DNA of 25,110 nt, taken from the IMG/VR virus record IMGVR_UViG_2648501787_000018; one strand, 5' to 3'. A model generated the notes under the pieces. It ran no database searches and was not told where the DNA came from. It saw nothing but the letters and a program-made list of their open reading frames with translations. This document shows positions 999 through 18,496 of the stretch, piece by piece. Position 1 is the stretch's first letter; the number at the start of each line of letters is the position of its first letter. The stretch is from a virus (Duplodnaviria; Heunggongvirae; Uroviricota; Caudoviricetes). The position numbers and the translations under genes were made by a program.

Positions 999-1004
999 GA
1001 TTAT

Positions 1005-1520: not shown

Positions 1521-1729
1521 TAGCTACCTCGATACTGTTGCTATCGTTGGTGGTTAGAAGCCCGTTGGTGTTCCTAGCACCTTCGGGCTTTGCTTTTTTA
1601 AGTGCCTCCGTGTTAAGGTGGCCACCTAACAATGAAAAGGCTAATTCAATAGGTGGTCACTTGTCAACGATCAAACGCGATAAAAGTCCTAAGGGTGATG
1701 GGCAATCTCCACAATTCAGAATGCGAATT

Positions 1730-1852: not shown

Positions 1853-1879
1853 GAATAATTGAAGTCAAGGAGCTAACAC

Positions 1880-2236: not shown

Positions 2237-2308
2237 ACTGATCACATTGCCCACCAGTCACAAATGTGGCATTGTTGGTGATGCGTTCAAGTTTAGTGTA
2301 TATCCATT

Positions 2309-2338
2309 GGCGACCGCCCCAGGTCGCCTTTGTTTTGT
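2309..2338 (+). terminator. Rho-independent terminator downstream of the RHH/SWIM gene pair
   Basis: Inverted repeat GGCGACC-gcccca-GGTCGCC followed by TTTGTTTTGT. Confidence 0.4.
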
Positions 2339-2919
2339 CACTGAATGCGGTTACCAAAGTAAAACTCAGGCTGATATTCACGTATCAGCCTTTTTTCTTC
2401 TTCCTCCAGCTCACGCTTTTTGCGCTTACATGCCTGTAGCTCCCTCCCCTTCTCGCTGGCACTTATTTGATATTGCTCTTTACGGCGGGAAAAATCCTGT
2501 AATGCACCCCACGGGATACCATAAGCCCCCGTTTTTCTGATACCTGGTATCACATTCCTGAATACCCAGTTACTGAAACGATGGGCGAACGTGCCAGGAG
2601 TAACAGCTTTGCGACTTCTGGCGATCAGCTTGTAAAAACCAGATTCAGAAACGACGCTATGATTTGGATTTCCGCGAATACCGTAGCTTAAAGCGACGGT
2701 ATTCTTCTCATCCACATCCAGAGCTTTTAGAGCATCGCGTGAGTTGCTTATTTCCAGAGCTTCACAAACATCCTTTGCAACAAACCACGGATCGCCGTTC
2801 AGATACACCACACGAACATCCACGCCATCAAAGCGCAGAACGACAAGATCACGAATATCGCAGAATTTTTTTACTGAACGAGCGTACCCCTTGCCCGTCA
2901 CGGCAATATTTTTATTCAT
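2338..2919 (-). CDS. BRO-N domain protein (phage antirepressor-like)
   Basis: VRVVYLNGDPWFVAKDVCEALEISNSRDALKALDVDEK ... SGFYKLIARSRK ... FSNWVFRNVIPGIRKTGAYG matches the conserved Bro-N domain pattern. GAGG RBS 8 nt upstream of ATG 2919. Confidence 0.75.
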   Translation of the reverse strand: MNKNIAVTGKGYARSVKKFCDIRDLVVLRFDGVDVRVVYLNGDPWFVAKDVCEALEISNSRDALKALDVDEKNTVALSYGIRGNPNHSVVSESGFYKLIARSRKAVTPGTFAHRFSNWVFRNVIPGIRKTGAYGIPWGALQDFSRRKEQYQISASEKGRELQACKRKKRELEEEEKRLIREYQPEFYFGNRIQ

Positions 2920-2934
2920 CGTTTTTTACCTCAC

Positions 2935-2963
2935 ATACAAAAAACCCCGCATTGCGTGCGGGG
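2935..2963 (-). terminator. Rho-independent terminator after alpA-like gene (minus strand)
   Basis: Hairpin CCCCGC-attgcgt-GCGGGG (2945-2963); on the minus strand it is followed by TTTTTTGTATG. Confidence 0.4.
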
Positions 2964-2977
2964 TATGAAAGATATTA

Positions 2978-3181
2978 TTAGTGGGGATTGGCCTGTTCTC
3001 GTTGTTTATCTAACCATGCATCTACATCTCTACGGTGCCAGGTATGCCGCCGCCCAATTCTGAACGGTTGAGGAAAACCATTATTTTCATCTTTCCAGAA
3101 ATTGATGAATGCGCTCATTGCCCCATAGCGCAAAATTTTCATTACGTCTTTAGTAAATAAAATATCTTCATTGGTATTCAT
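2978..3181 (-). CDS. alpA: AlpA/excisionase-family HTH transcriptional regulator (67 aa)
   Basis: Small HTH protein immediately downstream of the integrase; ...GFPQPFRIGRRHTWHRRDVDAWL fits the AlpA/Xis (HTH_17) pattern FP.P.R.G.R..W...DV..WL. Confidence 0.7.
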   Translation of the reverse strand: MNTNEDILFTKDVMKILRYGAMSAFINFWKDENNGFPQPFRIGRRHTWHRRDVDAWLDKQREQANPH

Positions 3182-3193
3182 TTGCTGAACTCC

Positions 3194-4432
3194 TCAACCA
3201 TTTACTATTCTCAAACCTTTCTTACCACCGGATCTATTAATTACCCCTTTTCTCGCCTCATCAAAAAAATCTCCTACCCATTGCATCATAATTTTGCGTT
3301 GTTCTAAATAAGTAGTTCTATTATAAATATCTCTTATTTTATCACCACTTTTATGTGCTAATGCAGCCTCAATAACATCAGGGTTAAAACCCTCCTCATT
3401 TAAAAGCGTACTCCACATCGAACGAAAACCGTGTAACGTTACAATCCCTTTGAACTTGCTGGCAGCAATTGGGGTATTGATAGTATTCTTTCCCATAGGA
3501 GCATCTTTTGTTCTGGAGGAAAAAAATATATAACGCCCTCTTTTTATTTTCTGCATTGTTCTTAGGATTCTAATAGCCTGTGATGAGAGAGGCACAACAT
3601 GTTCACGATGGCATTTCATTTTATGCGCGGGGATAATCCACAAGCCAGAATCAAAATCAATCTCGGACCACTCTGCTTTAATCGCCTCACCTGGCCTGAC
3701 CATTGTCAATATCTGGAATAAAAGTGCATTGTGAGCTATTTGATACTTATGAGGCACACTATCCCACCAACTCAGAAATTCAGGCAATCTTTCAACAGGT
3801 AGTGCAGCTAATGATTTATTTTTCTTTCCTGTGAATGCAGTTTTTATCTTAAGTAATGGATTCGTTTTCAATGCTCCACAATTTACAGCGTAATTCATAA
3901 TTTCATTTAATCTTGATATTAATTTTTTTTGCAACGCATTCTTATCGGATACGGCATCCAGAGCATTAATAGCTACTGGCGCTGTAATTTTCTCTATGCT
4001 GTACTTACCAAAGAAAGGAACAAGATATTTGTATACTTCATATTCGATATTATACAGCGTAGGTTTCCGCAATTCCGATCCCTTTTTAAAAGCGATCCAT
4101 GCATTAGCAACAGCTTCAAATGTTTGTAGATTTTTTAGTGACATCTCAATTTTACGATTTTTCTTCTCTGTCACTGGATCAACTCCACGTGCAATCATTC
4201 GCCGAAGTTCATCACGTATTTCCCGTGCTTCCGCGAGTGAGAATTCAGGAAAACGCCCTATCGTGTATGTCTGCCGTTTCTTCGTTATCGGATGGCTATA
4301 ACGGAAACGCCACACTTTCCCACCAGCTTTACTCACATTCAGCAATAAACCGAACCCATCATAAACGGCATAGTCCTTTTCACGTGGTTTCATTCCCTTA
4401 ACTTCAGTCACGGTTAATGGCTTTACCGGCAT
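3194..4432 (-). CDS. int: Tyrosine site-specific integrase, P4/IntS-like
   Basis: 412 aa. N-terminal arm-binding region (KPREKDYAVYDGFGLLLNVSKAGGKVWRFRY) and C-terminal catalytic residues (HGFRSMWST ... IRDIYNRTTY) typical of P4-type integrases. Confidence 0.9.
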   Translation of the reverse strand: MPVKPLTVTEVKGMKPREKDYAVYDGFGLLLNVSKAGGKVWRFRYSHPITKKRQTYTIGRFPEFSLAEAREIRDELRRMIARGVDPVTEKKNRKIEMSLKNLQTFEAVANAWIAFKKGSELRKPTLYNIEYEVYKYLVPFFGKYSIEKITAPVAINALDAVSDKNALQKKLISRLNEIMNYAVNCGALKTNPLLKIKTAFTGKKNKSLAALPVERLPEFLSWWDSVPHKYQIAHNALLFQILTMVRPGEAIKAEWSEIDFDSGLWIIPAHKMKCHREHVVPLSSQAIRILRTMQKIKRGRYIFFSSRTKDAPMGKNTINTPIAASKFKGIVTLHGFRSMWSTLLNEEGFNPDVIEAALAHKSGDKIRDIYNRTTYLEQRKIMMQWVGDFFDEARKGVINRSGGKKGLRIVNG

Positions 4433-4593
4433 CTATCGCCCTCATTTTTTAGTCCGTCATGTAGTCCTTTCAAGTCGATAACAAGCGATAAACTAACTCA
4501 TTATCAAGTAAAGAGAGGAAACACAAAAAATCACAACTCATTGAAAAGACTACAAAACGACACCAGAACATAAAAACAGGTAAGAAATGTACC

Positions 4594-5589
4594 CTACATC
4601 CAGAATGACGCAATACGTGAGCGTCGGGGATCACCATAACGACTGCCATCCGCATTGATGGATTCACCATCCCGCAACCAGACCCCACGTCCGTTCAGCT
4701 CACGTTTTTGTTCAGGCATAATCCGTCCTGAACAGGAAGGACACTGAATATAAGCCGCCTCACTTGCCAGCACAGGATCGGCAATATCACGGAAACCAGC
4801 AACCACATCGCCGCAGGGCTGAAAATACTCACCACAGTGTGGGCAGGGCCAGTACCAGCGACGTCGATCGCCACGGTTATAGAGTGACAGTATCCCCGTG
4901 GTTGGTGGAGCCTCATGCGGTGAAGTCCGTCGCCATTTCACATCCTTCACATCCCTGCCGGGGGAACTCTCCACCAGCGTCATACCACTGGACATAAATG
5001 TGGTGGTACGTTTTGAGGCAAGAGAGAAGGCATCCCCCTCGCCATCAATATCTTCCGGAAAACGGTCATAATCCGTCAGCGCCACGCATTTATAATCTGA
5101 TGAGGACATGATATTGACTGACGGCCAGCCGATTTTCAGGTAGTTGCCAGCAAGGAATGTTCTGTCATAAACGTTGTTGTCATTTTTGTTCGGACTCAGG
5201 CGACTGACCACTTCCGGGCTGACGCGAAACGTTCTGGCAAGTCGTTTTTTGGAGTGTTCGCGGGCTTTTTCCTCCGTCATCTGAATGATCAGCATATCCG
5301 CAGGATCGCAAATCACGTTGTAAATCACCCAGCCGTCAATCAGGCCGATAGTCTTGCCGGTTCGTGCCGGACCAACAAATATCACTGCGTCGTATTCACG
5401 CGAGGCCAGGCAGTTCATCGGCTCAATAACATACGGTGCCACCAGCGGATCCCACGGGACTGAGTTCCCTGCCCCCATGGGCACCCGCATATACTGAGCA
5501 ACGGCATCAGCAACCCGCATTCGTCTCGGTGCGCGAAGGATATAACCTGAATCGGTTCGTGCTGCCTTTGCGGTTTCCTGATTCAGCAT
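4594..5589 (-). pseudogene. Terminase large subunit, GpA family, truncated to the N-terminal 331 codons
   Basis: Walker A-like GPARTGKT and zinc-finger region WPCPHCGEYFQP ... CPSCSG as in lambda gpA (about 640 aa). The frame ends at ...RIASFWM well before the nuclease domain, followed by AT-rich island sequence. Start overlaps the Nu1-like stop (TAATG). Confidence 0.65.
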
Positions 5590-6083
5590 TACTCCTCCTG
5601 CTGTAATTCCTCCTCATCATCCGCACCTGCTTCGGTCACCCGCAGGGCTATCTGATCGCGCAGATCATCAATAATGGACTGAACACGGCTCACAGCGGCA
5701 GGCTGCAGACCGCAGTCACGTTCCAGAATATCCGGTAATGTTTCCAGTACCTGCACGACCGCTTTTGCCCAGATGGCAAACTCCCGTCTGACATCACTGG
5801 CCGGAATGAGTTGTGCCGTTTCCTGTTCGAACTTAAGACGCTCACGTTCAGACTGATACCAGGCTTTGCGCTCATGCGCGTCCATTTCGCCTTCTGCAAC
5901 CGGCGGTGGTAATGCCAGAAATGCCGACACAATATCAACCACCCGATAAAGCTTGAGGTTGCTTTCATGCCCCCCTGCAACGGGTAGATTTTGCAGCCTT
6001 GCCGCAGCAGTCTGGCGATGTACACCTGACAGTGCCGCCAGTTGACTGATATTCAGCGTCAGATTTTTTAACTCTTGATCCAT
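5589..6083 (-). CDS. Terminase small subunit, Nu1-like
   Basis: 164 aa; N-terminal HTH (LNISQLAALSGVHRQTAAARLQN) and position immediately upstream of gpA as in lambda Nu1. GGAG RBS 7 nt upstream of ATG 6083. Confidence 0.8.
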   Translation of the reverse strand: MDQELKNLTLNISQLAALSGVHRQTAAARLQNLPVAGGHESNLKLYRVVDIVSAFLALPPPVAEGEMDAHERKAWYQSERERLKFEQETAQLIPASDVRREFAIWAKAVVQVLETLPDILERDCGLQPAAVSRVQSIIDDLRDQIALRVTEAGADDEEELQQEE

Positions 6084-6099
6084 ACCCGCTCCAGAATGT

Positions 6100-6285
6100 T
6101 TTAAACATGCATCTTGCGAACAACTTTAGGCAAACGGTGTTAGTGATGAACAAAAAACAATCAAAATCGACACCATAAAAATAAAACTAATGCAATATCA
6201 ATGCATTACAGTAGTGGTGATGACGAATGAAATTTCAAAAACTAGCCTTTTTCCGCGCCGCTCCCGCCCCGTGGCAGGCCACCCC
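6100..6285 (-). other. Putative cos region (cosN about 6253-6275, cosB between it and the Nu1-like start)
   Basis: About 180 bp upstream of the Nu1-like start, the minus strand reads GGGGCGGGAGCGGCGCGGAAAAAGG, resembling the lambda cosN region (GGGCGGCGACCTCGCGGGTTTTCGC), followed by an AT-rich stretch with a 7-bp inverted repeat TAATGCA/TGCATTA. Exact nick sites cannot be set from sequence. Confidence 0.45.
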
Positions 6286-6920: not shown

Positions 6921-7388
6921 CTACTTAATGCGCTGGGTGCGGATATATTCCTGCGCCCCTTCCAGTTGCTTCTGCATCGTCATCAACCGTTCTCTGAGGG
7001 TGAAATAATCCCGTTCAGCGGTGTCTGCCAGTCGGGGGCTGGTTGCATTATCCATGCTGGTGGGTCCGGTGGCTTCACGCACGGCTGCGGAGCAACTGGC
7101 ATTGACCCGCAGGCGCTTACGACCAGCGGCAACATCAGCGCGCAGAGTTTCATTTTCAGTTTTCGCATCGGCTAACTCCTTCGTGTATTTTGCATCGATC
7201 GCAGCAACATCACGCTGACGCTGCTGCATGTCAGCGATGGTGGCGGTCGCCTGCTTCAGCTCACTGACTTTTTTATCACGCTGTTCTTTGTAGGCGATGG
7301 CGTTATCACGGTAATGATTAACAGCCCATGACAGGCAGGCGATGATACAAATAACCAGAGCGGAGATAATCGCGGTTACTCTGCTCAT
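6921..7388 (-). CDS. Rz: i-spanin Rz
   Basis: [16 protein letters not shown]...[13 protein letters not shown]...[16 protein letters not shown]...MQKQLEG is near-identical to lambda Rz as I recall it. Confidence 0.9.
6983..7168 (-). CDS. Rz1: o-spanin Rz1 (lipoprotein, embedded in Rz in the +1 frame)
   Basis: [22 protein letters not shown]...[32 protein letters not shown]: lipobox LVVSAC and proline-rich segment match lambda Rz1; fully nested in Rz. Confidence 0.85.
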
Positions 7389-7861
7389 ACCTCAATCTCT
7401 CTGACCGTTCCGCCTGCTTCTTTGAATTTTGCAATCAGGCTGTCAACTTTATGCTCGAACTGACCATAACCAGCGCCCGGTAGTGAAGCCCAGATATTGC
7501 TGCAACGGTCGATAGCCTGACGAATATCACCGCGATCAATCATCGGTAAAGCGCCACGCTCTTTAATCTGCTGCAGAGCTACAGCGTCCTGGCTTTCTGG
7601 AGAAAAATCTTTCAGGCCAAGCTGTTTACGGTAAGCATCCCACCAGCGTGAAAGAAGCTGGTAACGTCCGGCGGCTGTTGATTTGAGTTTGGGGTTTAGC
7701 GTGACAAGTTTGCGAGGATGATCGGAGTAATCCGTGAATAACTCACCACCTACAATAACGTCGTAGCCGTGATTGCGGGTTGGCTGTCGCCCGTTATCCG
7801 TTCCTTCTGACCACGCCAACATATCGAGGAAAGCTTTACGCTGGGAATTTAGTACCTGCAT
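7385..7861 (-). CDS. R: Endolysin, lambda R-type lytic transglycosylase
   Basis: 158 aa; [77 protein letters not shown] is almost identical to lambda R. Confidence 0.95.
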
Positions 7862-7864: not shown

Positions 7865-8200
7865 TTACTCCTTAGAGCCACCAAACTTGTTACCGATTAC
7901 TCGCATTGCAGCCCCACGAATAGCATCGACACCGATCAGCCCCACACCGCCACCAATGGCAACAGAAAGTGATTTAGGCCATCCGACATACTCAAGAGCG
8001 GATGCAAAGGTCAGCGTCAGAGCGCCACAGAGCAAAATCTCGAGCGTTTTTCGCTTCCAGCCACCACCACCGCCAAAATAGGCGATGCGCAAACCAGCCA
8101 TAACGATCGACATAATCACTGCACCCAGCGGCGTGTCTCCACGCCACCAGCTCTGAAACAACTCCAGCCAGTCCGGCCAGGTATTTGGGTTATGAGGCAT
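7865..8200 (-). CDS. Holin, class I (three predicted TM segments); track ORF extends to an upstream ATG at 8296
   Basis: Hydrophobic segments LGAVIMSIVMAGLRIAYF, LEILLCGALTLTFASALEYVGW and LSVAIGGGVGLIGV, then a charged C-terminus (RGAAMRVIGNKFGGSKE) like lambda S. The ATG at 8200 is preferred because the longer form overlaps the methyltransferase 3' end. Confidence 0.7.
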   Translation of the reverse strand: MPHNPNTWPDWLELFQSWWRGDTPLGAVIMSIVMAGLRIAYFGGGGGWKRKTLEILLCGALTLTFASALEYVGWPKSLSVAIGGGVGLIGVDAIRGAAMRVIGNKFGGSKE

Positions 8201-8276
8201 TTCGTCATCTCTCACCTCGCGATATTTGCGGGTGCTGTGTTGGAAATAAAAAGGCCACGCAACGTGGCCACCAGAA

Positions 8277-9329
8277 TTATTTCCCCACCAGTTCACTTAC
8301 CTCTTTCACCGTCTGATTAAACCGCTCTGACTCAAGTTCAACACCTAACGCCCGACGCCCCAGCGCCATTGCTGCTTTTATTGTGGAACCGGATCCCATA
8401 AAGAAATCAGCAACCAGATCACCAGGGCGACTACTGGCATTGATTATTTGCCGGAGCATATCCGCCGGTTTCTCGCACGGATGTTTACCCGGGTAGAACT
8501 GAACGGGTTTATGCGTCCAGACATCGGTATAAGGCACGGAGACTGATACGGAGAAATAGCGCCGGAGAGATTTAAACTCATCCAGCAATTCAGAATATTT
8601 GCGATTCAGTGAATCATAAGATGCCACCAGCTGGTGGTGTGGTTGTTCCAGTTGTTGTTCCTGAAACTTCTCTGCCGCTATACGGGAAAACAGTGCCTGT
8701 AACTTCCGATAGTCAGCCTCATTCGGCAACTGCCACTGACTGGCACCAAACCAGTGGGAAACCATATTTTTCTTACCTGTGGCTTCGGCAATTTGTTTTG
8801 CCGTTATACCCAGTTCGGCACGAGCATCCCTGAAATACGATATCAGCGGTGCCATTATGTGCTGTTTGAGTTCCCTTTCTTTTGCTGCATAGCCGTCACT
8901 TTTGCCGCGATATGGCCCCTGGTAATGTTCAGCAAACAGAACGCGCTCTGTGGCAGGAAAATATGCGCGCAGACTTTCTTTATTACACCCATTCCAACGT
9001 CCGGACGGCTTCGCCCAGATGATATGGTTAAGCACGTTGAAACGTTCACGCATCATGATCTCAATATCAGATGCCAGGCGATGCCCACAGAACAGATAAA
9101 GGCTTCCGGCAGGTTTTAACACCCGCCAGAACTGGGCCAGACAGTGGTCCAGCCACTTAAGGTAATCTTCGTCCCCTTTCCACTGATTGTCCCAACCGTT
9201 GGGTTTCACCTTGAAGTACGGCGGATCGGTAACAATCAGGTCAATGGAATCATCAGGCAGGGACTGAATAAAATGCAGGCAATCAGCGTTGATTAAATCA
9301 ACACTGTTTATTTTTACAGTATTTTTCAT
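8277..9329 (-). CDS. DNA methyltransferase, beta-class amino-MTase (N6-adenine or N4-cytosine), orphan
   Basis: 350 aa; catalytic motif IV (IVTDPPYF) near the N-terminus and AdoMet motif I (ADFFMGSGST) near the C-terminus, the beta-class order. No restriction endonuclease gene adjacent. Confidence 0.8.
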   Translation of the reverse strand: MKNTVKINSVDLINADCLHFIQSLPDDSIDLIVTDPPYFKVKPNGWDNQWKGDEDYLKWLDHCLAQFWRVLKPAGSLYLFCGHRLASDIEIMMRERFNVLNHIIWAKPSGRWNGCNKESLRAYFPATERVLFAEHYQGPYRGKSDGYAAKERELKQHIMAPLISYFRDARAELGITAKQIAEATGKKNMVSHWFGASQWQLPNEADYRKLQALFSRIAAEKFQEQQLEQPHHQLVASYDSLNRKYSELLDEFKSLRRYFSVSVSVPYTDVWTHKPVQFYPGKHPCEKPADMLRQIINASSRPGDLVADFFMGSGSTIKAAMALGRRALGVELESERFNQTVKEVSELVGK

Positions 9330-9479
9330 GGATCAGTAAGCGTAACTCTGGTAGGCTCACTCTGCTTTTGCGCTAAAGCAGTGGGCCGTGGTTCGCTTGT
9401 GACCAGTAAGCATGAGCGAATGGCTGGCAGGTGCTACCAACACCCACCAGCCGCCCATTTTCACAGCAGGAAACCGCCA

Positions 9480-9707
9480 TTACTGGCAGCGTCTGAATTT
9501 ATTCCCGTACCCGCCGTTATCCTTCGCCAGCCCCGCCAGAACTAACTGAGTCAGTATTAACTGGCACCGGGCTTCGCTTACTCCGGTAGTTCTCGTCATC
9601 ATGCGTGGCGTTACCCACTTGTCAGCAGGTAAGAAATGAAGGACTGCGGCGGCGGTTTCTGTCATATCTTGCTGTTTTAGCATGTCTTTTTCCCTTCTGG
9701 TTAACAT
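9480..9707 (-). CDS. Hypothetical small protein (75 aa or shorter)
   Basis: Track ORF between a tR'-like terminator and the methyltransferase; weak RBS; alternative starts at Met9 and Met15. Possibly HTH-like; not recognised. Confidence 0.3.
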   Translation of the reverse strand: MLTRREKDMLKQQDMTETAAAVLHFLPADKWVTPRMMTRTTGVSEARCQLILTQLVLAGLAKDNGGYGNKFRRCQ

Positions 9708-9802
9708 GACATACCAATAACTCTTGTCTAAAAAGCCAGCAAGATAAAAAGTCAGTATTCACGACCACCAGCGTGTTTACTGTACTGCACCAAGTTTACA
9801 GG

Positions 9803-9829
9803 TACAAAAAACCCGCTCAGTGGCGGGTT
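9803..9829 (-). terminator. Rho-independent terminator (tR'-like) in the late operon
   Basis: Hairpin AACCCGC-n6-GCGGGTT; on the minus strand it is followed by TTTTT. Confidence 0.5.
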
Positions 9830-9959
9830 TAAGTTGTGTGGCGAAGTAACCACTCTTAACACACTAATAGCATTTTTGTTATAACACAAGTAGCTCATTC
9901 AGTATTTTTAGAATCTTGACTTTCTTAAGCACGGCGAACTCTGAATACCAAACATAAAA

Positions 9960-10577
9960 TCAATTATCTTCCAGGCCGGATGCTATCAACGAAAGTCTCT
10001 CAAAAAACGCTGTAGCAGCCTTGTCCAAAGTTGAATAAGTACTGTATTCTCCGTGTTCGGGACCAACCACTACCCATGGTCGTCTTTTTGGGATTCGGGA
10101 TTTCTCAGAAATCACTGTTCCAGATATACCAATATCAATTGTTACACCTGTTATTATTTTCTCTTCATCTCTTTCCCTGAACTCAATTGCCATAAATGCC
10201 GTTTTTTTTCGTTTCCCGTTTTTAAAAAAATCAAATAAAGCAAAGCGATGCTCATTAAAATCAACACCCCATCGTCCTTCAGGATAAAGGGCATGAAAGT
10301 TGTCATTTACGCTCTGCATCGTCTCATAAGCTTTAACTTCTAAATCTCCATAGTGCATAGATACCGCGCAGGAGTTACTGGGTAACTGTATTTTCCCAAG
10401 ATTGAAAACCTTTACTGCTCCAGAACTATGGCATCTTGCCCGCAACTTATCCCCATTTATACTAATCGGAGAAATATTCCTTAATGTTCCGGGCTGGCTC
10501 CCTCCTAAGTAAACGACTGTTAAAGATTGCTTATTTTCAATTGCATCAACTAATACATGCTCTACATTTTTATCCAT
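9960..10577 (-). CDS. Hypothetical protein (about 205 aa) with WYL-like N-terminal motif; AT-rich moron between Q and the lysis genes
   Basis: Best start is ATG 10577-10575 with GGGAGG 6 nt upstream; the track's upstream ATG at 10604 lacks an RBS. LTVVYLGGSQPGTLRNISPISINGDKLRARCHSSGAVKVFNLGKIQL resembles the WYL-domain pattern (Y...R.i.P..l....a.c....F.L..I). C-terminal 120 aa unrecognised. Confidence 0.5.
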   Translation of the reverse strand: MDKNVEHVLVDAIENKQSLTVVYLGGSQPGTLRNISPISINGDKLRARCHSSGAVKVFNLGKIQLPSNSCAVSMHYGDLEVKAYETMQSVNDNFHALYPEGRWGVDFNEHRFALFDFFKNGKRKKTAFMAIEFRERDEEKIITGVTIDIGISGTVISEKSRIPKRRPWVVVGPEHGEYSTYSTLDKAATAFFERLSLIASGLEDN

Positions 10578-10652
10578 AATAACCTCCCAATGAACAGGTA
10601 TCATCAGGAGGTTATTATAAAATATGATTATTTACTTTGATTGAATTTATTA
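10578..10652 (-). promoter_or_regulatory. Putative late promoter (pR'-like) region immediately downstream of Q
   Basis: Minus strand contains TATAAT with an upstream TTCAAT at about 20 bp spacing; position matches lambda pR'. Not a strong consensus. Confidence 0.3.
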
Positions 10653-11024
10653 CTATATGTAACAATCAATTTCTAAAGATACCCCCAACATTGCCAGACA
10701 ACCGTCAATAAACCCTTCAGCTTTCTGCAGTCTGATAACAACCTGATTAAGTGATATCCCCAGTTTTACCCCCAACGCCCGTAATGTAACCCCATACACA
10801 TAATACATTTCCAGTAATTCGTATTGATACGGTTCCTTTTTCTTAAGAACTGTCATCGCAGAGCTAATGATCAGGCCATCGTCATCGCTACATTGCGGGC
10901 GGGATTTTACTTTCGAAGAAATTAATCCCTTAAAACCTGCAGCAACAGATGACCATTCCACATCCTCGTGATTATTTGCCACCCATGCCCCCCAACGTTC
11001 AAGAACCATTTGAATATCACGCAT
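10653..11024 (-). CDS. Late-gene antiterminator Q (QuuD/Q82-like small Q family)
   Basis: MRDIQMVLERWGAWVANNHEDVEWSSVAAGFKGLISSKVKSRPQCSDDDG matches what I recall of E. coli QuuD. ATG at 11024 has GGAG 8 nt upstream; the track's TTG at 11039 is less likely. Confidence 0.8.
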   Translation of the reverse strand: MRDIQMVLERWGAWVANNHEDVEWSSVAAGFKGLISSKVKSRPQCSDDDGLIISSAMTVLKKKEPYQYELLEMYYVYGVTLRALGVKLGISLNQVVIRLQKAEGFIDGCLAMLGVSLEIDCYI

Positions 11025-11041
11025 CAACTTTCTCCACAAAA

Positions 11042-12037
11042 TCAGGCCAGCACGCCTATTGCCAGCGCACGATCGATAAAACGAAATATCAGCTCCAGCT
11101 GGGAGCCATACTTCTCTTCAAATGCCACGGTATCCGCATGCAGCTCGTCGTGATGCTTTCTGCACAAAGGCAACACAAAAAGGTCATGCGCTTTTGTAGC
11201 CATTCCACCCTGACCGTGACCTATCAGGTGGTGGGGATCATCAGCAGGCTTTCCACAACATGCACACGGCTGTGTCTTAACCCAGCGCGTGTACTTTTCA
11301 TTAACCCAGCGGCGACGTTTTGGGCGTAACATAAAAGACTCCGGCGACTCCGGATCCACTTTCAGCGCCAGCACCTTTTTCGCTTTATCCTGGATGATGC
11401 TGGTGGCAGGAACCGAAGGCACAAGGTCACTTTCCCGGGTGACAGACGGCACAACAGGCTTCGGTAATCTCAGTGCCTTACGGGCTGCACTTTCCGGTAA
11501 GGCATCCGCCAGGTCATTACGAATCAGCCACCAGCACAGTTCCGGCATTGTCACAACGTGACTGTCATCAAAACCGAGATCCCGACGCACAACAGACAAC
11601 ACCCAGCGGGTACAGTTATCCGTTGCCATTGATTCCAGTCGTTCCGTGAACTGATCGCGCAGCTGGTTATCGCAGTGCCAGCACAGACGGATTGCGCCCG
11701 GCGCGTGTCGCATTGTTGTCATGTTCTCGCTGTGCCAGTCGGAATGAGGCCACTGGCAGCCTTTTTCACGAAGTAACCAGCTTTCAAGACATTCCACGCC
11801 ACCAGCACGACGGATCACTGCCTCATTGCGGAACACGGCCCGAACGGCAGGATCATCCGCCAGCGGTTGTGATGCCGCCGGAACGGCACCACTGGCGAAA
11901 GATGAATAACGTTCCGGCTCAGGCTCCAGCAGGACACGCCCCTGCATAAACAGGGGCATCAGCTCTGAACCTGGCCTGAACAATACGATCCCCATACGCG
12001 GGGCAATTTCAGGGGTCAGTAGCGCTCTCACGGTCAC
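11042..12037 (-). CDS. DUF968-family phage protein (YdfU-like) with C-terminal Cys/His-rich HNH-like motif
   Basis: 331 aa; C-terminal ...CACCGKPADDPHHLIGHGQGGMATKAHDLFVLPLCRKHHDELH. Sits before Q as in Qin/DLP12-type nin regions. Start uncertain (GTG at 12037 or ATG at 11995). Confidence 0.6.
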   Translation of the reverse strand: MTVRALLTPEIAPRMGIVLFRPGSELMPLFMQGRVLLEPEPERYSSFASGAVPAASQPLADDPAVRAVFRNEAVIRRAGGVECLESWLLREKGCQWPHSDWHSENMTTMRHAPGAIRLCWHCDNQLRDQFTERLESMATDNCTRWVLSVVRRDLGFDDSHVVTMPELCWWLIRNDLADALPESAARKALRLPKPVVPSVTRESDLVPSVPATSIIQDKAKKVLALKVDPESPESFMLRPKRRRWVNEKYTRWVKTQPCACCGKPADDPHHLIGHGQGGMATKAHDLFVLPLCRKHHDELHADTVAFEEKYGSQLELIFRFIDRALAIGVLA

Positions 12038-12038
12038 C

Positions 12039-12848
12039 TCAATGAACGGTATCGAGCAGCTTTAACAGCTCAGGGAACCGGGATTCGAAGAAATGCGGCT
12101 GCGTCTCGCGCGGATTTGCGGGACTGGTGATGTTCTTGCCGAACATGCAGCCTTTCGCTGTCAGCGACCAGAATTTTTTGATGTTGTTAATCGCAGTGCG
12201 GCTGTATCGTTCACGTTGTTCAACGATCCCCAGCTTCGCCATCTGGTGATATGCCTGATTAGCTGTCAGGCGGATACCATACTGCTTCAGCAGTGCACTC
12301 AGTGACAGCGTGGGGCGGCTTGAGCCATCAGGCGCGTCAGCAGGAGCATCAATGGCATAGCGCGGTGCCAGATTCGGTAAGCCAACAGCCTCCTGGAGTT
12401 TCTGACAGGCACCAAGCACTGAAGAGTTAGACAGGTTTAATTCCCGGCGCATAAAGTCCAGCAGAATCACACCAGCCTGCATCTTGTCAGCAGCCTGTCC
12501 GGATAATTTTTCCGGTGCGCTGGTTACCATGTCGAAAGTACGGATCACCTTCAGATGGAATGACGGGCTGATCCACATTGCATAGGCATACACCAGTTCC
12601 TTGCAGACATACGTTCCCCGTTCATTTCCCCCATGAATCACACTCACCGGGTCAACACCCAAATTCTGGGTGTTGGTCAATTCATGAACAAGCTCAACAG
12701 TTTGTTGGCTGGAAAGAAACTTTCCTGGCTCCTTGGTTCTGGCATTTGCACCAGATGCTACTGCTGCGCGATGCAGATCGTTCAGGCTGTAACGCCCATA
12801 AGCATCACGACGAACTTCAATACCATCAATGACCATCAGATTATTCAT
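12039..12848 (-). CDS. KilA-N domain protein (antirepressor-like)
   Basis: N-terminal 105 aa with GGNERGTYVCKELVYAYAMWISPSFHLKVIRTF is a clear KilA-N signature. GAGGAG RBS upstream of ATG 12848. Confidence 0.75.
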   Translation of the reverse strand: MNNLMVIDGIEVRRDAYGRYSLNDLHRAAVASGANARTKEPGKFLSSQQTVELVHELTNTQNLGVDPVSVIHGGNERGTYVCKELVYAYAMWISPSFHLKVIRTFDMVTSAPEKLSGQAADKMQAGVILLDFMRRELNLSNSSVLGACQKLQEAVGLPNLAPRYAIDAPADAPDGSSRPTLSLSALLKQYGIRLTANQAYHQMAKLGIVEQRERYSRTAINNIKKFWSLTAKGCMFGKNITSPANPRETQPHFFESRFPELLKLLDTVH

Positions 12849-12867
12849 ACTTCGTTTCTCCTCTTAA

Positions 12868-13257
12868 TCAGGCGGCTGCACCCGCCGTTTTCTCGTACTT
12901 ACTGATAGTGATCTCGACCTTCCCTTTCGGGATAACCGGTCCCCACTCCACCAGCATTCTTTTCACCTGTCTGTCGTCTTCCCACACACCCGCGTGGGTC
13001 AGGGCGTCAAACAGCGCCTTGTTATAGTTGTCCAGATCACGGATCCGGTTATCCGGCGGAAACAACACGATCTCCACTGAAGCAGGTGCCGACGTTGGTT
13101 TCGGCAGACGACGTAACTGCTCAACTATTGCTGCGCACGCCGCGCTCTGAAATTTTCGCCCCGCCTCGCTTATCAGGCTCTTACCAGCAAATGCCCCTTT
13201 GTTGGGGTGTCGCCAGTACGTGTTCACACTGGGCGGGAAAGGAAGGATCAACTTCAT
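12868..13257 (-). CDS. rusA: Holliday-junction resolvase RusA
   Basis: 129 aa; LPFPPSVNTYWRH ... RDLDNYNKALFDALTHAGVWEDDRQV matches the RusA family. Start overlaps upstream stop (ATGA). Confidence 0.85.
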   Translation of the reverse strand: MKLILPFPPSVNTYWRHPNKGAFAGKSLISEAGRKFQSAACAAIVEQLRRLPKPTSAPASVEIVLFPPDNRIRDLDNYNKALFDALTHAGVWEDDRQVKRMLVEWGPVIPKGKVEITISKYEKTAGAAA

Positions 13258-13580
13258 ACTTTCAGGCCCCTCTCATGTAACCAGTGGGCTGCACGCAACC
13301 TGGCGCTCTCCTCACTGGCAAGCAGTGCGCGGATGATACCGACCGCTTCGCTGTCGTCGTCCTTCACTGCGGTATGAAGCGTGATCCCCCGGGCCACGCC
13401 ACGCTTTATCGTGATGACGCCTTTTTTCTCCAGTGCGCGAAGATGCTCCACCGCTGCATTCACTGAACGGTATCCCAGCATGGTTGCCACCTCCTGATTG
13501 GTTGGCGGAAAGCCACGCTCTTGCTGGTAAGAAATCAGCATATCCAGCACCTGCTGCTGGCATTGAGTTAACGTCGTCAT
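13254..13580 (-). CDS. LexA DNA-binding-domain-only protein (no S24 peptidase domain)
   Basis: LTQCQQQVLDMLISYQQERGFPPTNQEVATMLGYRSVNAAVEHLRALEKKGVI parallels the LexA N-terminal winged HTH; the protein ends after about 108 aa with no Ser/Lys protease motifs. Confidence 0.7.
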   Translation of the reverse strand: MTTLTQCQQQVLDMLISYQQERGFPPTNQEVATMLGYRSVNAAVEHLRALEKKGVITIKRGVARGITLHTAVKDDDSEAVGIIRALLASEESARLRAAHWLHERGLKV

Positions 13581-14230
13581 GCCGCCATCTCCCTGACAAG
13601 TTTTTCTGCCTGCTGGCGAACCTGCGCCAGAAACGCCTCACCACATGCCTCAAGTTCATCGCGCCCGATGTAGCTGATTGCCGGTCCCTTCCAGGTCTTG
13701 TCGAAAACAGCAATAGCACCAGCGAAGAAAGCGCCTGTCGGCACCTGCTTCTCGTCCTTCGGGATAAACCAGGCTGGCAGTTCAAAACCAATACGCCCGC
13801 GAATAAAAGCAATATGGTCTGCATCTTCCGGCCACCACACTTCGCTGGTGGCAGCTTTGATCAGGAAAACATAGCGCCCGCCTTTATCACGCATAGCACT
13901 GGCATGTTTCATGATGTAACGCATGCCGGTGATGTATTGCCCCTCATGCTGACTGGCGCGGCTGTACGGGGGATTACCAAAGGCAGCACCTTTAAGCTCC
14001 GCAAGACGTTCTGACCAGTCATGCGCCAGCGCGTTGTCTTCCGCAGTGTAATAAGCGGCACATTTGGCGTTATCACCATCAGTAAACAGATCCAGAACAA
14101 ACGGGCCAAACAGGGTGTTAATTCCCCAGAAAATGTTGTCCGGCGTGCGCCACTGATCGCCCACTTCCTTCAGTTCATGGGCTGGTTTGTTCCGCAACTC
14201 CACCAGCGCCTGGCAATATTTATTACTCAT
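13577..14230 (-). CDS. Phage N6-adenine DNA methyltransferase (phage Dam family)
   Basis: DQWRTPDNIF ... AFGNPPYS motifs. ATG at 14230-14228 overlaps the upstream stop (TAATG); the track's longer start at 14263 would overlap the upstream gene. Confidence 0.8.
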   Translation of the reverse strand: MSNKYCQALVELRNKPAHELKEVGDQWRTPDNIFWGINTLFGPFVLDLFTDGDNAKCAAYYTAEDNALAHDWSERLAELKGAAFGNPPYSRASQHEGQYITGMRYIMKHASAMRDKGGRYVFLIKAATSEVWWPEDADHIAFIRGRIGFELPAWFIPKDEKQVPTGAFFAGAIAVFDKTWKGPAISYIGRDELEACGEAFLAQVRQQAEKLVREMAA

Positions 14231-14718
14231 TAAGCCCCCACGTAATTCCCTGACAGATACCACTCTTCACCCGATACAGCGCGCTTGCTGCTTTTCCGTA
14301 AACACCGCTCACGACGCGCAAGAAAATTGTTTCGCTCTTGCTGGGAGTGGCTTTCACGGAATGCCGCCATCCACACCGTTGCAGCACGACGGTATAAGCC
14401 CCTGGACTCCAGTTCTTCCGCCAGGCGGGTCAGGCACAAAATCACCCGGGGATCGTTAGTGCCGACATAGAAATTGCGCACAGGTCTGGATTCACGAACT
14501 GGTTGCGGTTCCGGCTCCTGCGGTATCTCAGTCAGCCGCGGGAAATTTCTGCGTGTATCCCCTTCACAACGGTGAGCCACACGCCCACTCTGACGTAACT
14601 TGCTTGCTGACTGCAGAACGCGCTGTCGTGAGTAACCTGCAAAAGCATCCGCAATGTCTCCGGAAGTACATCCCGGATGGGCTTCAATGAATTTCTGAAC
14701 GTCATTCAAAAGACTCAT
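14230..14718 (-). CDS. Putative PerC/ANR-like transcriptional regulator (tentative)
   Basis: N-terminal HTH-like segment and LAEELESRGLYRRAATVWMAAF, reminiscent of PerC-family phage regulators. Assignment from memory, low certainty. Confidence 0.4.
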   Translation of the reverse strand: MSLLNDVQKFIEAHPGCTSGDIADAFAGYSRQRVLQSASKLRQSGRVAHRCEGDTRRNFPRLTEIPQEPEPQPVRESRPVRNFYVGTNDPRVILCLTRLAEELESRGLYRRAATVWMAAFRESHSQQERNNFLARRERCLRKSSKRAVSGEEWYLSGNYVGA

Positions 14719-14720
14719 GA

Positions 14721-15539
14721 TCACCCCCTGAATCCTACCGGGATCTGGCTGTAGTCCACATTGTCGTAACTGGCTTTGAAGTACGGGTCCTCGCGTCTGG
14801 CTGCAGATACCGCAGGAACTTCCCAGGATTCTTCGAAATGACGATCCGGACCAAAGAACGTGACAGCCTGTTTCACAAATTGTGTGCCGCTGTTACCCAT
14901 CGCAGATACCCAGCCCGCGTAGCGTTTCACACCTTCCAGCATGGTTTCGGGGTTTACCCCCTCATTCAAACGGGCTTTCCAGGCTTTGAAGGCTGCAGAT
15001 TTTGAATTGCCACCAGCACGTTTGGGATATACCAGCCATGCCTGCTCAAACTCCGGAGAGTATTCCGGTCGGTTTGAACGAACTCGCACAGACTCATCAG
15101 CAGATGCACCAACAGCTATTGGTTCATTGACTGGTTCTTTGACTGGTTCAAAAGAGTGACTGGTTCTGGGTGAATCTCCTGCACTACCCCCTGGTGCAAC
15201 TCCTGCACTACCTGGTGAATTTGCTGCACCAGATAGTGAATTATTTGCACTACCCCCTAGTGAATCTCCTGCACCATCCAGATGAAGGAGATAGATATTA
15301 CTTGAGTTACCTTTTTCACCTTTCCGGGTGACTTTTTTTACCAGCCCGGACTCACAAAGGGCCGCAATATGATTCATCACAGAACGTTTGCTAATCTCGC
15401 ACTGGTCAGCAATATGCTGGTAGCTGGGCCAGCACTCCCCCTGATCGCTGGCATTATCAGCCAGCTTGATCAGAACCAGTTTTCGCAATGGATTTCCCAC
15501 TCGAATTTTCATCGCTTTAACCATCAGCTCCATACTCAT
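14721..15539 (-). CDS. Replication initiator (O-like; N-terminal wHTH, Gly/Ser-rich linker, YfdO-type C-terminus)
   Basis: 272 aa; HTH in first 70 aa (WPSYQHIADQCEISKRSVMNHIAALCESGLV); coding region contains the iteron array; C-terminal EFEQAWLVYPKR...FKAWKARL resembles phage replication proteins. Start overlaps upstream stop (ATGA). Confidence 0.7.
   Translation of the reverse strand: MSMELMVKAMKIRVGNPLRKLVLIKLADNASDQGECWPSYQHIADQCEISKRSVMNHIAALCESGLVKKVTRKGEKGNSSNIYLLHLDGAGDSLGGSANNSLSGAANSPGSAGVAPGGSAGDSPRTSHSFEPVKEPVNEPIAVGASADESVRVRSNRPEYSPEFEQAWLVYPKRAGGNSKSAAFKAWKARLNEGVNPETMLEGVKRYAGWVSAMGNSGTQFVKQAVTFFGPDRHFEESWEVPAVSAARREDPYFKASYDNVDYSQIPVGFRG
15128..15274. repeat. Replication-origin iterons inside the initiator gene
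   Basis: Five copies of GTGAAT(C/T)T(C/G)CTGCAC-like 15-mers at 15170, 15194, 15215, 15236, 15260 (spacing 21-24 bp), preceded by three copies of TGACTGGTTC (15128-15166). Confidence 0.6.
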
Positions 15540-15760
15540 GCAGCACCTCCGAGATGCTTCATGTTTTTTCCGGAGCGAAAGGCTATAAGCGGCATACTGA
15601 CGCGGTAATTACGGCCCAGCGGTTCACAAACCACCTTCTGACATTCACGGTCAACCAGGCTAACACGTAGAACATGCCCTGCAGGCGTGGTGTACCACTG
15701 ACCCGGACGAGGACAACGGAAAGTCTGATTGGTAAAACGTTTGAAAATATTCCGGATCAT
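15536..15760 (-). CDS. Hypothetical small protein (74 aa)
   Basis: Track ORF; both ends overlap neighbours in ATGA fashion, consistent with a real co-translated gene. No motif recognised. Confidence 0.4.
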   Translation of the reverse strand: MIRNIFKRFTNQTFRCPRPGQWYTTPAGHVLRVSLVDRECQKVVCEPLGRNYRVSMPLIAFRSGKNMKHLGGAA

Positions 15761-16302
15761 TTGCGCCCCCTTACCTCTGAAGAGTTCAGCGACGAATGAA
15801 TAAGACGGGCAAGAAATGCCGCATCGTTAATTCGGTCATACAGACTTACAGCCAGCGGTGATTCAGCTTTTTCCAGCATGGGATAAAGCTGCTGCAACCA
15901 GACCTGATGAATTGATGAAATGTAGGAATAGAGAACGCTGGCGTTATGTGCAACGTCGCTCGGTACAGAGGGCTTTGAAAGCTGTTTCTCCATCTGGTTA
16001 AAGGCATTGATGTATGCCTCTTTGAACTGGGCAGCACGTTTACCCGTGAAACCCATAGCAAGAAACGCAAAGCCATCGCGGGTTATTTGATAGCAAGGTA
16101 GTTTGCGGCCTGAAGCGTCGATATAACCACTTAACACAAAATTGTGTTCAGCAAATTCAGCGGAGCATTCAAGGTTTCGAATTCTATCTAAAACCCGCTC
16201 ATGCCGTTTAGTAAAGTAGTTAGCAACTGCAAGAGATGTAGTGACAGCACGACCATTGATGATCGTGATTTCAGGGTGAACAAAGGTTGGGATCGTAGCC
16301 AT
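15757..16302 (-). CDS. Rha-family phage regulatory protein (about 181 aa); the same frame stays open upstream to 16905
   Basis: ITIINGRAVTTSLAVANYFTKRHERVLDRIRNL ... YQITRDGFAFLAMGFTGKRAAQFKEAYINAFNQME matches the Rha domain. ATG at 16302-16300 has GAGG 8 nt upstream. The track ORF (382 aa) adds 201 upstream codons of atypical composition. Confidence 0.7.
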   Translation of the reverse strand: MATIPTFVHPEITIINGRAVTTSLAVANYFTKRHERVLDRIRNLECSAEFAEHNFVLSGYIDASGRKLPCYQITRDGFAFLAMGFTGKRAAQFKEAYINAFNQMEKQLSKPSVPSDVAHNASVLYSYISSIHQVWLQQLYPMLEKAESPLAVSLYDRINDAAFLARLIHSSLNSSEVRGRK

Positions 16303-16901
16303 AATGGCAGCCTCGGTAGCAAGCTTAAAAAACTCACCACATAAGACGCCAATCATAGAGGTGGTGAGACGTACAGAGTTGGCGTTACCGGCGGCTACCC
16401 TTACCGGCGCATCTTGCGATGCCCCTGTACGCCCCACCATAATTTGGGCGTGACAAAATAATGCGTACAAAAAAACCGCATCTACGCGGTTGTACGCGGT
16501 AGCCTTCTCCAGGACGCCAATCCCGGCACCCGCTTTATAAGGTGCCTGAACAGTGTAACGTCCCGGAATGGCAGAATCAATGTGCTGGTGGTCCTTCACA
16601 CTCAACAAAATCACGCCTGAATTTCCACAAAGGACTAAAGCACTCATGCGGGTAGTCTTTGCGAAGATAGATAACGCGCTGTGTTTCTGGCTCCCAACGA
16701 ATAACATGGACATAAAGCCCTCTTCCGTCACGAAACCAGCGGTTAAGTTCCTGCACAACTCGCCCCCCACAGTCAGGTAAAGTTCTCTGTGGTTACTTAC
16801 AGCCAGGTGATTTGGTAATCTGCATTCATGCCGTAACAACAGGTGTTCAGCGACACTGACCACCAGCTGTTGCGACAAACGGTTATTTGCCGTTAAACTG
16901 T

Positions 16902-17453
16902 TCATGCGTTAGTTTCTCCACAGACACAAAACGCCACGACGCCCGGAGCTGCACACTCGCGGGCGTCACTCTTTTCTGGAGCGCAGAAGATTTTGTAGAC
17001 CAGTGCTGCATGTTCCTGGAGCTTCGAAATTGACAGATACAACTCATCATTAATTGCTGTCTGCTCGTGTGGCTCCACGACCCCATCTTCGATTGCCGAA
17101 CGAATCTGCTTTGAGTAATTCCCGATCTGTTCGATGACTTCCAGCAGGCGCTGGTTTATATCGGCGTTCTCTACTTCCTCAATTTCAGGAAGCGATACGA
17201 ACACCCCACCAGCAGACTGTGCGACAGCATCCGCAATGTAGTGAGTGCCAGCCGCGCGCTGTAAAACCATTGCCCATCCCAGCGGGAAAATCTGATCGCC
17301 ATCTGCACGAAGGCGGTTGAATAAAGCGTTCTCTGTTACATCCAGCCAGTCAGCAGCTTCAGCGTAACCCCCAGGCAATGCCGCGATAGTTTTTCTGACA
17401 GCTTTCACGTGCCACTCAGGTTGTTTTTCCACTTTCCAGTGATGCTTACCCAC
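16902..17453 (-). CDS. CII-like phage regulatory protein (tentative, Phage_CP76-like)
   Basis: 183 aa, directly downstream of the cro-like gene in the cII position; GTG start with AGGAGG 6 nt upstream. Family from memory, moderate certainty. Confidence 0.55.
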   Translation of the reverse strand: MGKHHWKVEKQPEWHVKAVRKTIAALPGGYAEAADWLDVTENALFNRLRADGDQIFPLGWAMVLQRAAGTHYIADAVAQSAGGVFVSLPEIEEVENADINQRLLEVIEQIGNYSKQIRSAIEDGVVEPHEQTAINDELYLSISKLQEHAALVYKIFCAPEKSDARECAAPGVVAFCVCGETNA

Positions 17454-17803: not shown

Positions 17804-18496
17804 ATGAACATAGGAAATCGAGTCAGACAACTTCGCCAGGCGAAGAACATGAAAATCGCCGATCTCGCTGAAGCAATAGGAGTGGATGCGGCGAATATCT
17901 CGCGCCTCGAAACAGGTAAGCAGAAACAATTCACTGAACAAGCCCTGAGTAATATTGCCAGGAGCTTAGGTGTTGATATTGCTGATCTCTTTACCTTAGA
18001 CCTCAAAAGTAATACTGTATGTAAAAACAGTATTAGTGAGGATGTTGCGCAGGTGAAGGATGTATTCCGTATTGAAATGCTGGATGTCAGTGCCAGTGCG
18101 GGAAATGGCCTTATCCAGGGCGGTGATGTCATTGATGTGATTCATGCCATTGAATACAGAACTGATAATGCTGTATCGATGTTTGGTGGACGACCAGCAA
18201 ATCACATTAAAGTTATCAACGTTCGTGGGGACAGTATGTGTCCAACCATTGAGCCAGGAGATCTCATCTTCGTTGATATCAGTATCAATCAGTTTGATGG
18301 GGATGGTATATATGTATTTGGTTTTGATGATAAAATTTACGTCAAACGACTGCAAATGATACCTGATAAACTGCTGGTAATTTCTGATAATCAGATTTAC
18401 CGCGAATGGGGAATTACCAGCGAAAACGAACACCGGTTTATGGTCTTTGGAAAGGTCTTAATCAGTCAGTCACAAACCCTTAAGCGACACAATTAA
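17804..18496 (+). CDS. cI: CI-type prophage repressor (HTH plus S24 LexA-like peptidase domain)
   Basis: 230 aa; N-terminal HTH (MKIADLAEAIGVDAANISRLETGKQ); C-terminal peptidase core (VRGDSMCPTIEPGDLIFVD ... IYVKRL) with Ser and Lys. Confidence 0.9.
   Translation: MNIGNRVRQLRQAKNMKIADLAEAIGVDAANISRLETGKQKQFTEQALSNIARSLGVDIADLFTLDLKSNTVCKNSISEDVAQVKDVFRIEMLDVSASAGNGLIQGGDVIDVIHAIEYRTDNAVSMFGGRPANHIKVINVRGDSMCPTIEPGDLIFVDISINQFDGDGIYVFGFDDKIYVKRLQMIPDKLLVISDNQIYREWGITSENEHRFMVFGKVLISQSQTLKRHN

Follow-up and report, generated by a model that had tools for sequence, protein, structure and literature searches.

Two orphan adenine methylase genes of a lambdoid prophage: an early Dam-family enzyme and a probably non-specific late enzyme behind a conserved structured leader

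Here, we analyze the two DNA methyltransferase (MTase) genes of a 25,110-nucleotide (nt) stretch of viral DNA, IMG/VR record IMGVR_UViG_2648501787_000018; this whole stretch, which we refer to as the window, is a lambdoid (SfV/CPS-53-like) prophage read mostly from the minus strand. Our analyses make it likely that the prophage carries two accessory, swappable orphan adenine-methylase cassettes of known kinds, an early Dam and a late enzyme of the M.EcoGII type (coordinates in Table 1). An earlier note on this DNA had reported a phage Dam-family N6-adenine MTase and a beta-class amino-MTase, neither with an adjacent endonuclease, and had suggested differently timed functions with distinct target sites. 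Both genes and their orphan state are confirmed below by profile matches, catalytic motifs, full-length open reading frames (ORFs) and scans of the flanking ORFs, and an early and a late timing fit the gene order. The distinct target sites were not upheld, as the late protein lies inside the M.EcoGII family (81% identity to M.EcoGII, 90% to the reconstructed ancestor Anc291). It is best read as a probable non-specific adenine methylase, not as a second site-specific one. In front of it lies an apparently undescribed feature, a conserved structured leader.

The late MTase scored 146.6 bits against PF01555 (cut-off 26.7), with DPPY at residues 35-38 and FMGSG at residues 310-314; because motif IV precedes motif I, it belongs to the beta class. 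Its order of DPPY, target-recognition domain and FxGxG is that of the M.EcoGII family, and like M.EcoGII and M.EcoGI (349-350 residues) it is a prophage-borne orphan. M.EcoGII, from a prophage of Escherichia coli O104:H4 C227-11, is a non-specific adenine MTase, and so is M.EcoGI, which matches it at 333 of 349 residues (PMC5778455). The window enzyme aligns with M.EcoGII over the full length at an approximate identity of 81.3% (283/349, 2 gaps), with 119/134 and 70/89 identical positions in the catalytic core and 60/78 (77%) in the target-recognition domain. It is nearer to Anc291 (89.6%) than to M.EcoGII itself, and is 87.5% identical to the ancestor Anc289 and 71.1% to SUPREM, again approximately. 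All of the ancestral proteins methylated both DNA and RNA; M.EcoGII, Anc291 and SUPREM showed no site specificity on RNA, and M.EcoGII none on DNA (PMC11551740). Judged by pairwise identities, the late MTase falls within the range of experimentally non-specific members, which suggests that it most likely methylates adenine in any context, with no recognition sequence. If it has no target site, any site of the Dam (GATC, if our assignment below holds) would be nested within the late specificity. This activity is predicted from sequence, and the window enzyme differs from M.EcoGII at ~19% of residues overall and at 23% in the target-recognition domain. In a sequence search against solved structures, the match was limited to the catalytic core common to other beta-class MTases.

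An alternative is that both enzymes are site-specific orphan MTases with different recognition sequences, each directed against different restriction enzymes at a different time. Both are indeed orphans in differently timed operons, and NCBI labels relatives of the late enzyme "site-specific DNA-methyltransferase," though this label is generic. However, all of the tested members that bracket the late enzyme are non-specific (M.EcoGI, M.EcoGII, Anc291 and, at ~70% identity, SUPREM), and homologues at ~93% similarity are listed as "nonspecific" (PMC6602927), so we consider two separate recognition sequences quite improbable.

The early enzyme is a full-length member of its family, with 155.7 bits against PF05869 (cut-off 28.1; profile positions 3-167 of 169), 255.6 bits against the equivalog model TIGR01712 phage_N6A_met (cut-off 97; positions 1-165 of 165) and the catalytic motif NPPY at residues 86-89. 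We prefer the ATG at 14230 over the start of a longer GTG ORF because it overlaps the upstream stop codon (TAATG) and follows a GGGGG run; the Dam stop codon in turn overlaps the ATG of the next gene, which encodes a LexA-like protein. T1 Dam and M.EcoVT2Dam (orf32 of VT2-Sakai) belong to the same PF05869/TIGR01712 family, the latter also sharing the nin-region position. The three proteins have 27 invariant columns, including D-W-TP, LD, NPPYS, S..W and GR..F. The reported target of M.EcoVT2Dam is GATC (PMC6602927), and from these relatives we assign the same target to the window Dam with moderate confidence. This can be no more than an inference because the identities are 24% (T1 Dam) and 31% (M.EcoVT2Dam), because an insertion of ~10 residues follows NPPYS, and because the C-terminal third is dissimilar to that of the T1 and VT2 enzymes. 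No solved structure was detectable by sequence for the Dam.

The same divergence is what would favor a Dam-family protein that is not a GATC DNA methylase and instead has another DNA motif, an RNA substrate or a partner requirement. The gene is also linked by overlapping codons to genes for two small proteins of DNA-binding type (YfdN/PerC-like and LexA-like), and there is a precedent in the Stx-phage enzyme M.EcoPA8orf6770P: despite its annotation as a GATC MTase, it acts on 16S rRNA and depends on the winged-helix partner PNB-2 (PMC10810198). The precedent comes from another fold family, however. M.EcoPA8orf6770P (M.EcoGV type) is an MT-A70 enzyme with DPPW, which rules it out as an identity for the Dam; neither window MTase matches PF05063 (MT-A70), and their motifs are NPPY and DPPY. 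A partnership with the LexA-like neighbor finds no support from gene fusion, as the C-terminal extension of the 297-amino-acid (aa) ST64B homologue is unlike the LexA-like protein. Together with the equivalog-level score and the retained family-invariant residues, this leaves a non-GATC role unlikely.

The first 89 residues of the Dam are 100% identical to YfdM of E. coli K-12, encoded in the cryptic prophage CPS-53/KpLE1. The gene neighbors are also the same, with yfdN upstream and yfdP-yfdQ-yfdR-yfdS on the other arm; yfdN, yfdQ, yfdR and yfdS of CPS-53 all have counterparts in the window. With 91 aa, YfdM ends just past NPPY and is too short for a complete MTase, whereas the window copy is full length. 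By this comparison, the window Dam is the intact form of yfdM. A preprint ties YfdM to how a T1-like phage spreads (bioRxiv 10.1101/413146).

Neither MTase is accompanied by the cognate endonuclease of a Type II restriction-modification system: scans of the flanking ORFs against Pfam, PHROGs and PADLOC matched no restriction-endonuclease model beside either gene. Instead, the neighbors are the YfdN/PerC-like, LexA-like and RusA genes for the Dam, and the small winged-helix ORF and holin gene for the late MTase. A DUF968/HNH gene lies 1.7 kb off and is also present in a prophage that lacks both MTases (that of E. coli strain EJN001).

The novelty that the earlier note had implied for this pair did not survive comparison with other phages. 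Among the listed phage records with the late MTase, 24 of 25 also carry the window-type Dam, and the pair occurs in SfV, mEp460, cdtI, vB_EcoM-720R4, vB_EcoS-569R4, PhiR40_1, PhiR55_1 and 13 Stx2c phage records. In SfV, mEp460, cdtI and the Stx2c phages, dam and orf48/"DNA methylase" occupy the same two genomic slots at nucleotide identities of 96-99% (Dam) and 85-99% (late MTase), and nothing of substance sets the window pair apart except that its prophage has an interrupted terminase gene. Phage 1720a-02, named as the bearer of a very similar late MTase (PMC5778455), has the window-type Dam as well. Among 5426 complete E. coli genomes, 1251 have the late MTase and 2102 the Dam (23-39%). Published work and dozens of annotated phages thus already cover the two genes, how they are paired and placed, and the anti-restriction role that is likely for the late one.

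The prophage backbone of EJN001 (locus L005, 22026-27419) matches positions 7865-14724 of the window without either MTase: its yfdN directly adjoins the LexA-like gene, and between its Q and holin genes lies a Clp-fold serine protease gene in the opposite orientation. Because both MTases are missing from this otherwise matching backbone, we regard them as gene-sized, swappable cargo. In other genera, a Pantoea locus (L169, 1-594) has a late M.EcoGII-type MTase plus an early (nin-region) 575-aa C5 MTase, and a Klebsiella locus (L171, 2441-3085) has a late M.EcoGII-type MTase plus an MT-A70 enzyme just before Q. One early and one late orphan MTase seems to be a general, recurrent design.

Both genes might instead be functionless passengers of a defective prophage. 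The large terminase here is truncated to 331 aa and abuts a foreign integrase, K-12 shows with its truncated copy that this Dam can decay, and M.EcoGII itself sits on an element that its authors call a cryptic prophage (PMC5778455). On the other hand, both window ORFs are full length with all motifs, and both genes are under purifying selection: dN/dS (the ratio of nonsynonymous to synonymous substitution rates) is 0.13 between the late MTase and its Stx2c-phage copy, and the Dam differs from its ST64B homologue with a pN (proportion of nonsynonymous differences) of 0.19 at saturated synonymous sites. The genes are conserved across genera with saturated synonymous sites, phages recovered as viable particles, such as SfV, mEp460 and cdtI, have near-identical copies, and the terminase insert may excise. 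We therefore hold it improbable that both genes are without function.

The gene order separates the two cassettes in a way that fits different timing. The Dam gene follows the replication genes and precedes Q, in the delayed-early (nin-type) region, while the late MTase lies between Q and the holin gene, so it can be co-transcribed only with the late genes, of which it is the first long gene. The order Q-MTase-holin also holds in prophages of Klebsiella, Pantoea and Erwinia, whose Q and holin genes come from different families, and in Stx2c phages the late MTase is directly upstream of stx2c. Terminator-like hairpins lie on both sides of the late cassette (Table 1). The hairpin that spans the stop codon of the small ORF resembles a terminator, possibly tR', as U5-U7 comes after it in many other genera. 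From this anatomy, the Q product would be needed for transcription to get past the terminators on either side of the MTase cassette, and only Q-modified RNA polymerase should pass. A position behind terminator-like hairpins downstream of Q fits with a gene that is silent in the lysogen, as M.EcoGII is reported to be; M.EcoGII slows growth if expressed and is presumably turned on at induction to defeat restriction, and anti-restriction is the likely role of its family (PMC5778455, PMC12707154).

From these observations, we infer the following sequence of events. The Dam, tied by overlapping start and stop codons into the delayed-early operon, would be made when replication starts and would most likely methylate GATC on freshly replicated phage DNA. 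The late MTase would be silent in the lysogen, where such an enzyme would be toxic, and would be made only when Q-modified polymerase reads through. It could then hypermethylate progeny DNA before packaging, which would give blanket protection from restriction sensitive to N6-methyladenine (m6A) in the next host. The small winged-helix ORF and the leader probably add a layer of post-transcriptional control, as we hypothesize below.

Several points weigh against this account, in addition to the divergence of the Dam from its GATC-methylating relatives. The M.EcoGII and ancestor sequences come from PMC11551740 (Table S1) in a text converted by machine from PDF, where errors are visible, which is why the identities are approximate. 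The target-recognition domain is less conserved than the protein as a whole, and in other MTases small changes in this domain can alter specificity. The timing called late here is read from gene order. Finally, given the interrupted terminase gene, virion production and any gain from anti-restriction may be lost in the window copy.

Upstream of the late MTase, we found a small ORF and, between the two genes, a structured leader that ends at the MTase ATG. The small protein itself has no Pfam match, but it is probably a winged-helix protein, as its relatives include some with PF17782 (a DprA-type winged-helix domain) and some annotated as TrmB-family regulators. The small ORF always lies 150-152 nt upstream of the MTase, and in IMG/VR the two genes are paired in 78 of 80 loci, the association holding in both directions. 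A scan in which each species was represented by a single genome found 80 loci across about 35 Enterobacterales genera, 78 of them usable. In 57 of these 78 usable loci, the leader retains 71-92% nucleotide identity, versus 62-93% for the MTase protein and 38-69% for the small protein in other genera, making this spacer more conserved than either flanking gene. The pairing extends to Klebsiella and Pantoea, where the small protein is only ~60% identical; there, the leader is 87-90% identical, versus 73% for the MTase coding sequence with synonymous sites saturated. Reading the leader as coding sequence is argued against by 1-2 nt indels in its loops across genera.

The conserved fold is a three-way junction (~9382-9457) in which the stem P1 (UGGGC/GCCCA) encloses hairpins hp1 (12 base pairs, bp) and hp2; toward the 3' end follow hp3 (~9362-9380) and a weakly supported hairpin before the AUG. 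In a structure-blind MAFFT alignment, 91.5% of the cells were paired, compared to 30-42% with slid partners, and 15 pairs had double changes versus 7.2 +/- 1.3 in shuffles. A model-based alignment (A5) gave similar values, with 92.6% of the cells paired (30-41% when slid) and 16 double-change pairs (7.6 in shuffles). On any measure, the observed value was reached by none of 500 shuffles. Double compensatory changes occur in 8 of the 11 hp1 pairs, and 3 to 4 of the 6 hp2 pairs covary, while the AUG-proximal hairpin has 81% of its cells paired and almost no covariation. The covariance model built on the leader (R1) scored 147 bits at this site and had no other match in the window. Rfam 15 had no match at E<=10 on the MTase sense strand of the leader; its best scores in this region (12-30 bits) were all on the opposite strand or outside the leader. 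By sequence inspection, no Shine-Dalgarno sequence was seen near the MTase start codon. More speculatively, the alignment also allows an alternative helix (GGCCCAC/GUGAGCC) and a 5' pseudoknot (UGUGA/UCACA), with almost no covariation to back them.

A GATC (Dam) site at 9333-9336(-), which is -7 to -4 from the late MTase ATG, is part of the weakly supported pre-AUG hairpin. Among 56 aligned leaders, its A-T-C is invariant and its G is conserved in at least 90%.

The element might act at the DNA level rather than as a folded RNA, for instance if the small winged-helix protein used it as an operator in the manner of restriction-modification controller proteins. The constant presence of the small ORF ~150 nt upstream would agree with this, as would the scarcity of covariation in the AUG-proximal hairpin and the many C-A cells of hp2, which would be wobble pairs on the other strand. 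However, hp1 keeps 10-14 bp in 19 of 21 loci of differing gene context despite almost unrelated sequences, most of its pairs are doubly compensated, G-U pairs fall on the sense strand, and the element is found upstream of other genes without the small ORF. We give a role as DNA a small chance.

A loose pattern scan of IMG/VR returned 121 matches to the leader core. For 88 of them, the start codon of an M.EcoGII-type gene follows 51-53 nt downstream; 11 of the other 33 were upheld by the covariance model, which was run on the sequences retrieved for this work. These confirmed copies lie downstream of Q genes from three different Pfam families. Two of them precede a ParB_N gene and, behind it, a gene for a TET-associated glycosyltransferase; four precede genes for holin and endolysin; and further copies precede a C5 cytosine MTase gene, a Mom-family gene (one IMG/VR phage), and one truncated and one remote N6-adenine MTase gene. 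Because a structure-blind MAFFT alignment across contexts (A6) misregisters the 3' strand of hp1, we folded the sequences one by one, which yielded the hp1 counts given above. The leader-bearing loci (L169, L171, L173-L250, L255, L262, L269, L279, L319, L352, L358 and L370) always have it downstream of a Q gene. By these comparisons, the leader motif is a real and fairly widespread late-leader RNA element, found mostly before toxic DNA-modification genes. It is absent from K-12 DLP12, Qin and CPS-53, the EJN001 prophage, T1, VT2-Sakai (where model R1 also has no match in the region with three tRNA genes) and ST64B. Its absence from K-12 DLP12, Qin, CPS-53, EJN001 and VT2-Sakai rules out a universal late-leader element of lambdoid phages.

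Phage lambda has a partial copy (locus L373, 1532-1594, equal to lambda 45031-45093) ~95 nt upstream of S. It reads CGUGAAAGCGGGUG, followed by a 10-bp hp1 and an hp2-like segment, with the 3' strand of P1 absent. To our knowledge, no function has been described for this stretch.

The RNA core precedes four unrelated kinds of modification genes (N6-adenine MTases, a C5 MTase, a Mom-family gene and the ParB_N/TET-associated glycosyltransferase pair), and the small ORF and leader may be a control module for toxic DNA-modification genes. Going further, and tentatively, the small ORF and the three-way-junction leader could be an undescribed post-transcriptional module, analogous to com-mom, that gates translation or stability at the heads of late operons; we regard this as possible, though with less than even expectation. 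In phage Mu, com-mom is under translational control that involves a small ORF and mRNA structure at the start of the gene, and the toxic DNA modifier is silent in the lysogen. Here, too, a small ORF and a structured stretch of mRNA precede a gene whose product is probably a toxic DNA modifier. The likeness is of architecture only: here, the small protein is winged-helix-like and not a Com-type zinc finger, and the RNA is a ~90-nt three-way junction, not a single inhibitory stem. Altogether, the parallel is suggestive. Mom has also been paired with M.EcoGII in a review as silent and toxic (PMC12707154).

Table 1. Positions of the two MTase genes, the leader and surrounding features in the window.
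Feature	Position	Strand	Basis
Rz	6921-7388	-	PF03245; 3' of endolysin
Endolysin	7385-7861	-	phrog_90; 3' of holin
Lambda-type holin	7865..8200	-	In-frame ATG at 8200; PF05106, E 5.9e-27
Strong terminator-like hairpin, GGCCACG-UUG-CGUGGCC then U5, between MTase stop and holin start	8245..8269	-	Terminator scan; fold -19.1 kcal/mol, z -4.68
Late beta-class N6-adenine MTase, M.EcoGII family, 350 aa	8277..9329	-	PF01555 N6_N4_Mtase, E 1.3e-42
Conserved structured leader, ~136 nt, ending at MTase ATG	9330..9465	-	Conservation and covariation
Hairpin across small-ORF stop codon, then UUUCCU	9473..9490	-	Fold; upstream-region alignment
Small ORF, 75 aa, phrog_331, probably winged-helix	9480..9707	-	phrog_331, E 3e-26
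Terminator-like hairpin and U-run after 205-aa cargo gene, upstream of small ORF	9803..9830	-	Fold -13.8 kcal/mol, z -3.55
Q late-gene antiterminator	10653..11039	-	PF06530, E 1.6e-47
108-aa protein with LexA-type DNA-binding domain, directly downstream of Dam	13254..13580	-	PF01726, E 2.4e-19
Phage Dam-family N6-adenine MTase, 217 aa, delayed-early operon	13577..14230	-	PF05869, E 1.1e-45
YfdN/PerC-like ORF, directly upstream of Dam	14230..14724	-	PF06069; named yfdN in RefSeq relatives

The backbone around these genes follows the lambdoid order. A CI-like repressor gene (17804-18496(+)) is followed by Cro-like and CII-like genes, a Rha/Ash antirepressor-type gene and replication genes, then by the YfdN/PerC-like ORF, Dam, the LexA-like gene, RusA, KilA-N, DUF968/HNH and Q. 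After Q come a cargo gene, the small ORF, the late MTase, holin, endolysin, Rz, and the small and large terminase genes. ARAGORN detected no tRNA genes anywhere in the window, the Q-holin interval included. The cargo gene (9960-10577(-)) encodes 205 aa, is AT-rich (about 39-42% GC) and matches phrog_8498, with a weakly WYL-like N-terminus. It is inserted between Q and the MTase cassette with a good ribosome-binding site and its own terminator, and it is found in only 5-7 of 80 related loci; it looks like cargo and could be a defense gene.

In the shortened large terminase gene, the ATPase domain is whole and the nuclease domain is gone. The gene adjoins a P4-type integrase gene (3194-4432) at a drop in GC content, with the junction near 4470-4594. 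In EJN001 (L005, 6875-19586), a ~10.6-kb satellite-like insert divides the terminase gene in two and carries genes for an integrase, Bro-N, an Icd-like protein, a primase, SSB, a protease/capsid fusion and a DUF1441 small-terminase homologue of its own. At least 80% of window positions 1-6200, with the terminase junction, recurs in nine complete E. coli genomes. Rfam matches at gathering score to C4 antisense RNA (68.4 bits, 16357-16444(-)) and the Hfq-binding RNA IsrK (60 bits, 16469-16545(-)) lie within or before the Ash/Rha antirepressor-type ORF (15757-16905), which suggests an RNA-controlled antirepressor immunity module in the style of phages P1 and P7.

For the methylome of such a lysogen, our reading of the late enzyme means that one should look for global m6A after induction, not for a new motif. 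M.EcoGII was expressed alone, and the published work makes no mention of an upstream small ORF or leader (PMC5778455). If the leader and small-ORF module is real, the "non-specific" activity of M.EcoGII expressed in this way might also be modulated in vivo, and the module could matter to those who use M.EcoGII for chromatin mapping and RNA methylation. The leader would then add an RNA family found in many Enterobacterales prophages, and together with the small ORF it would explain how these phages control a lethal, indiscriminate DNA-modifying enzyme.

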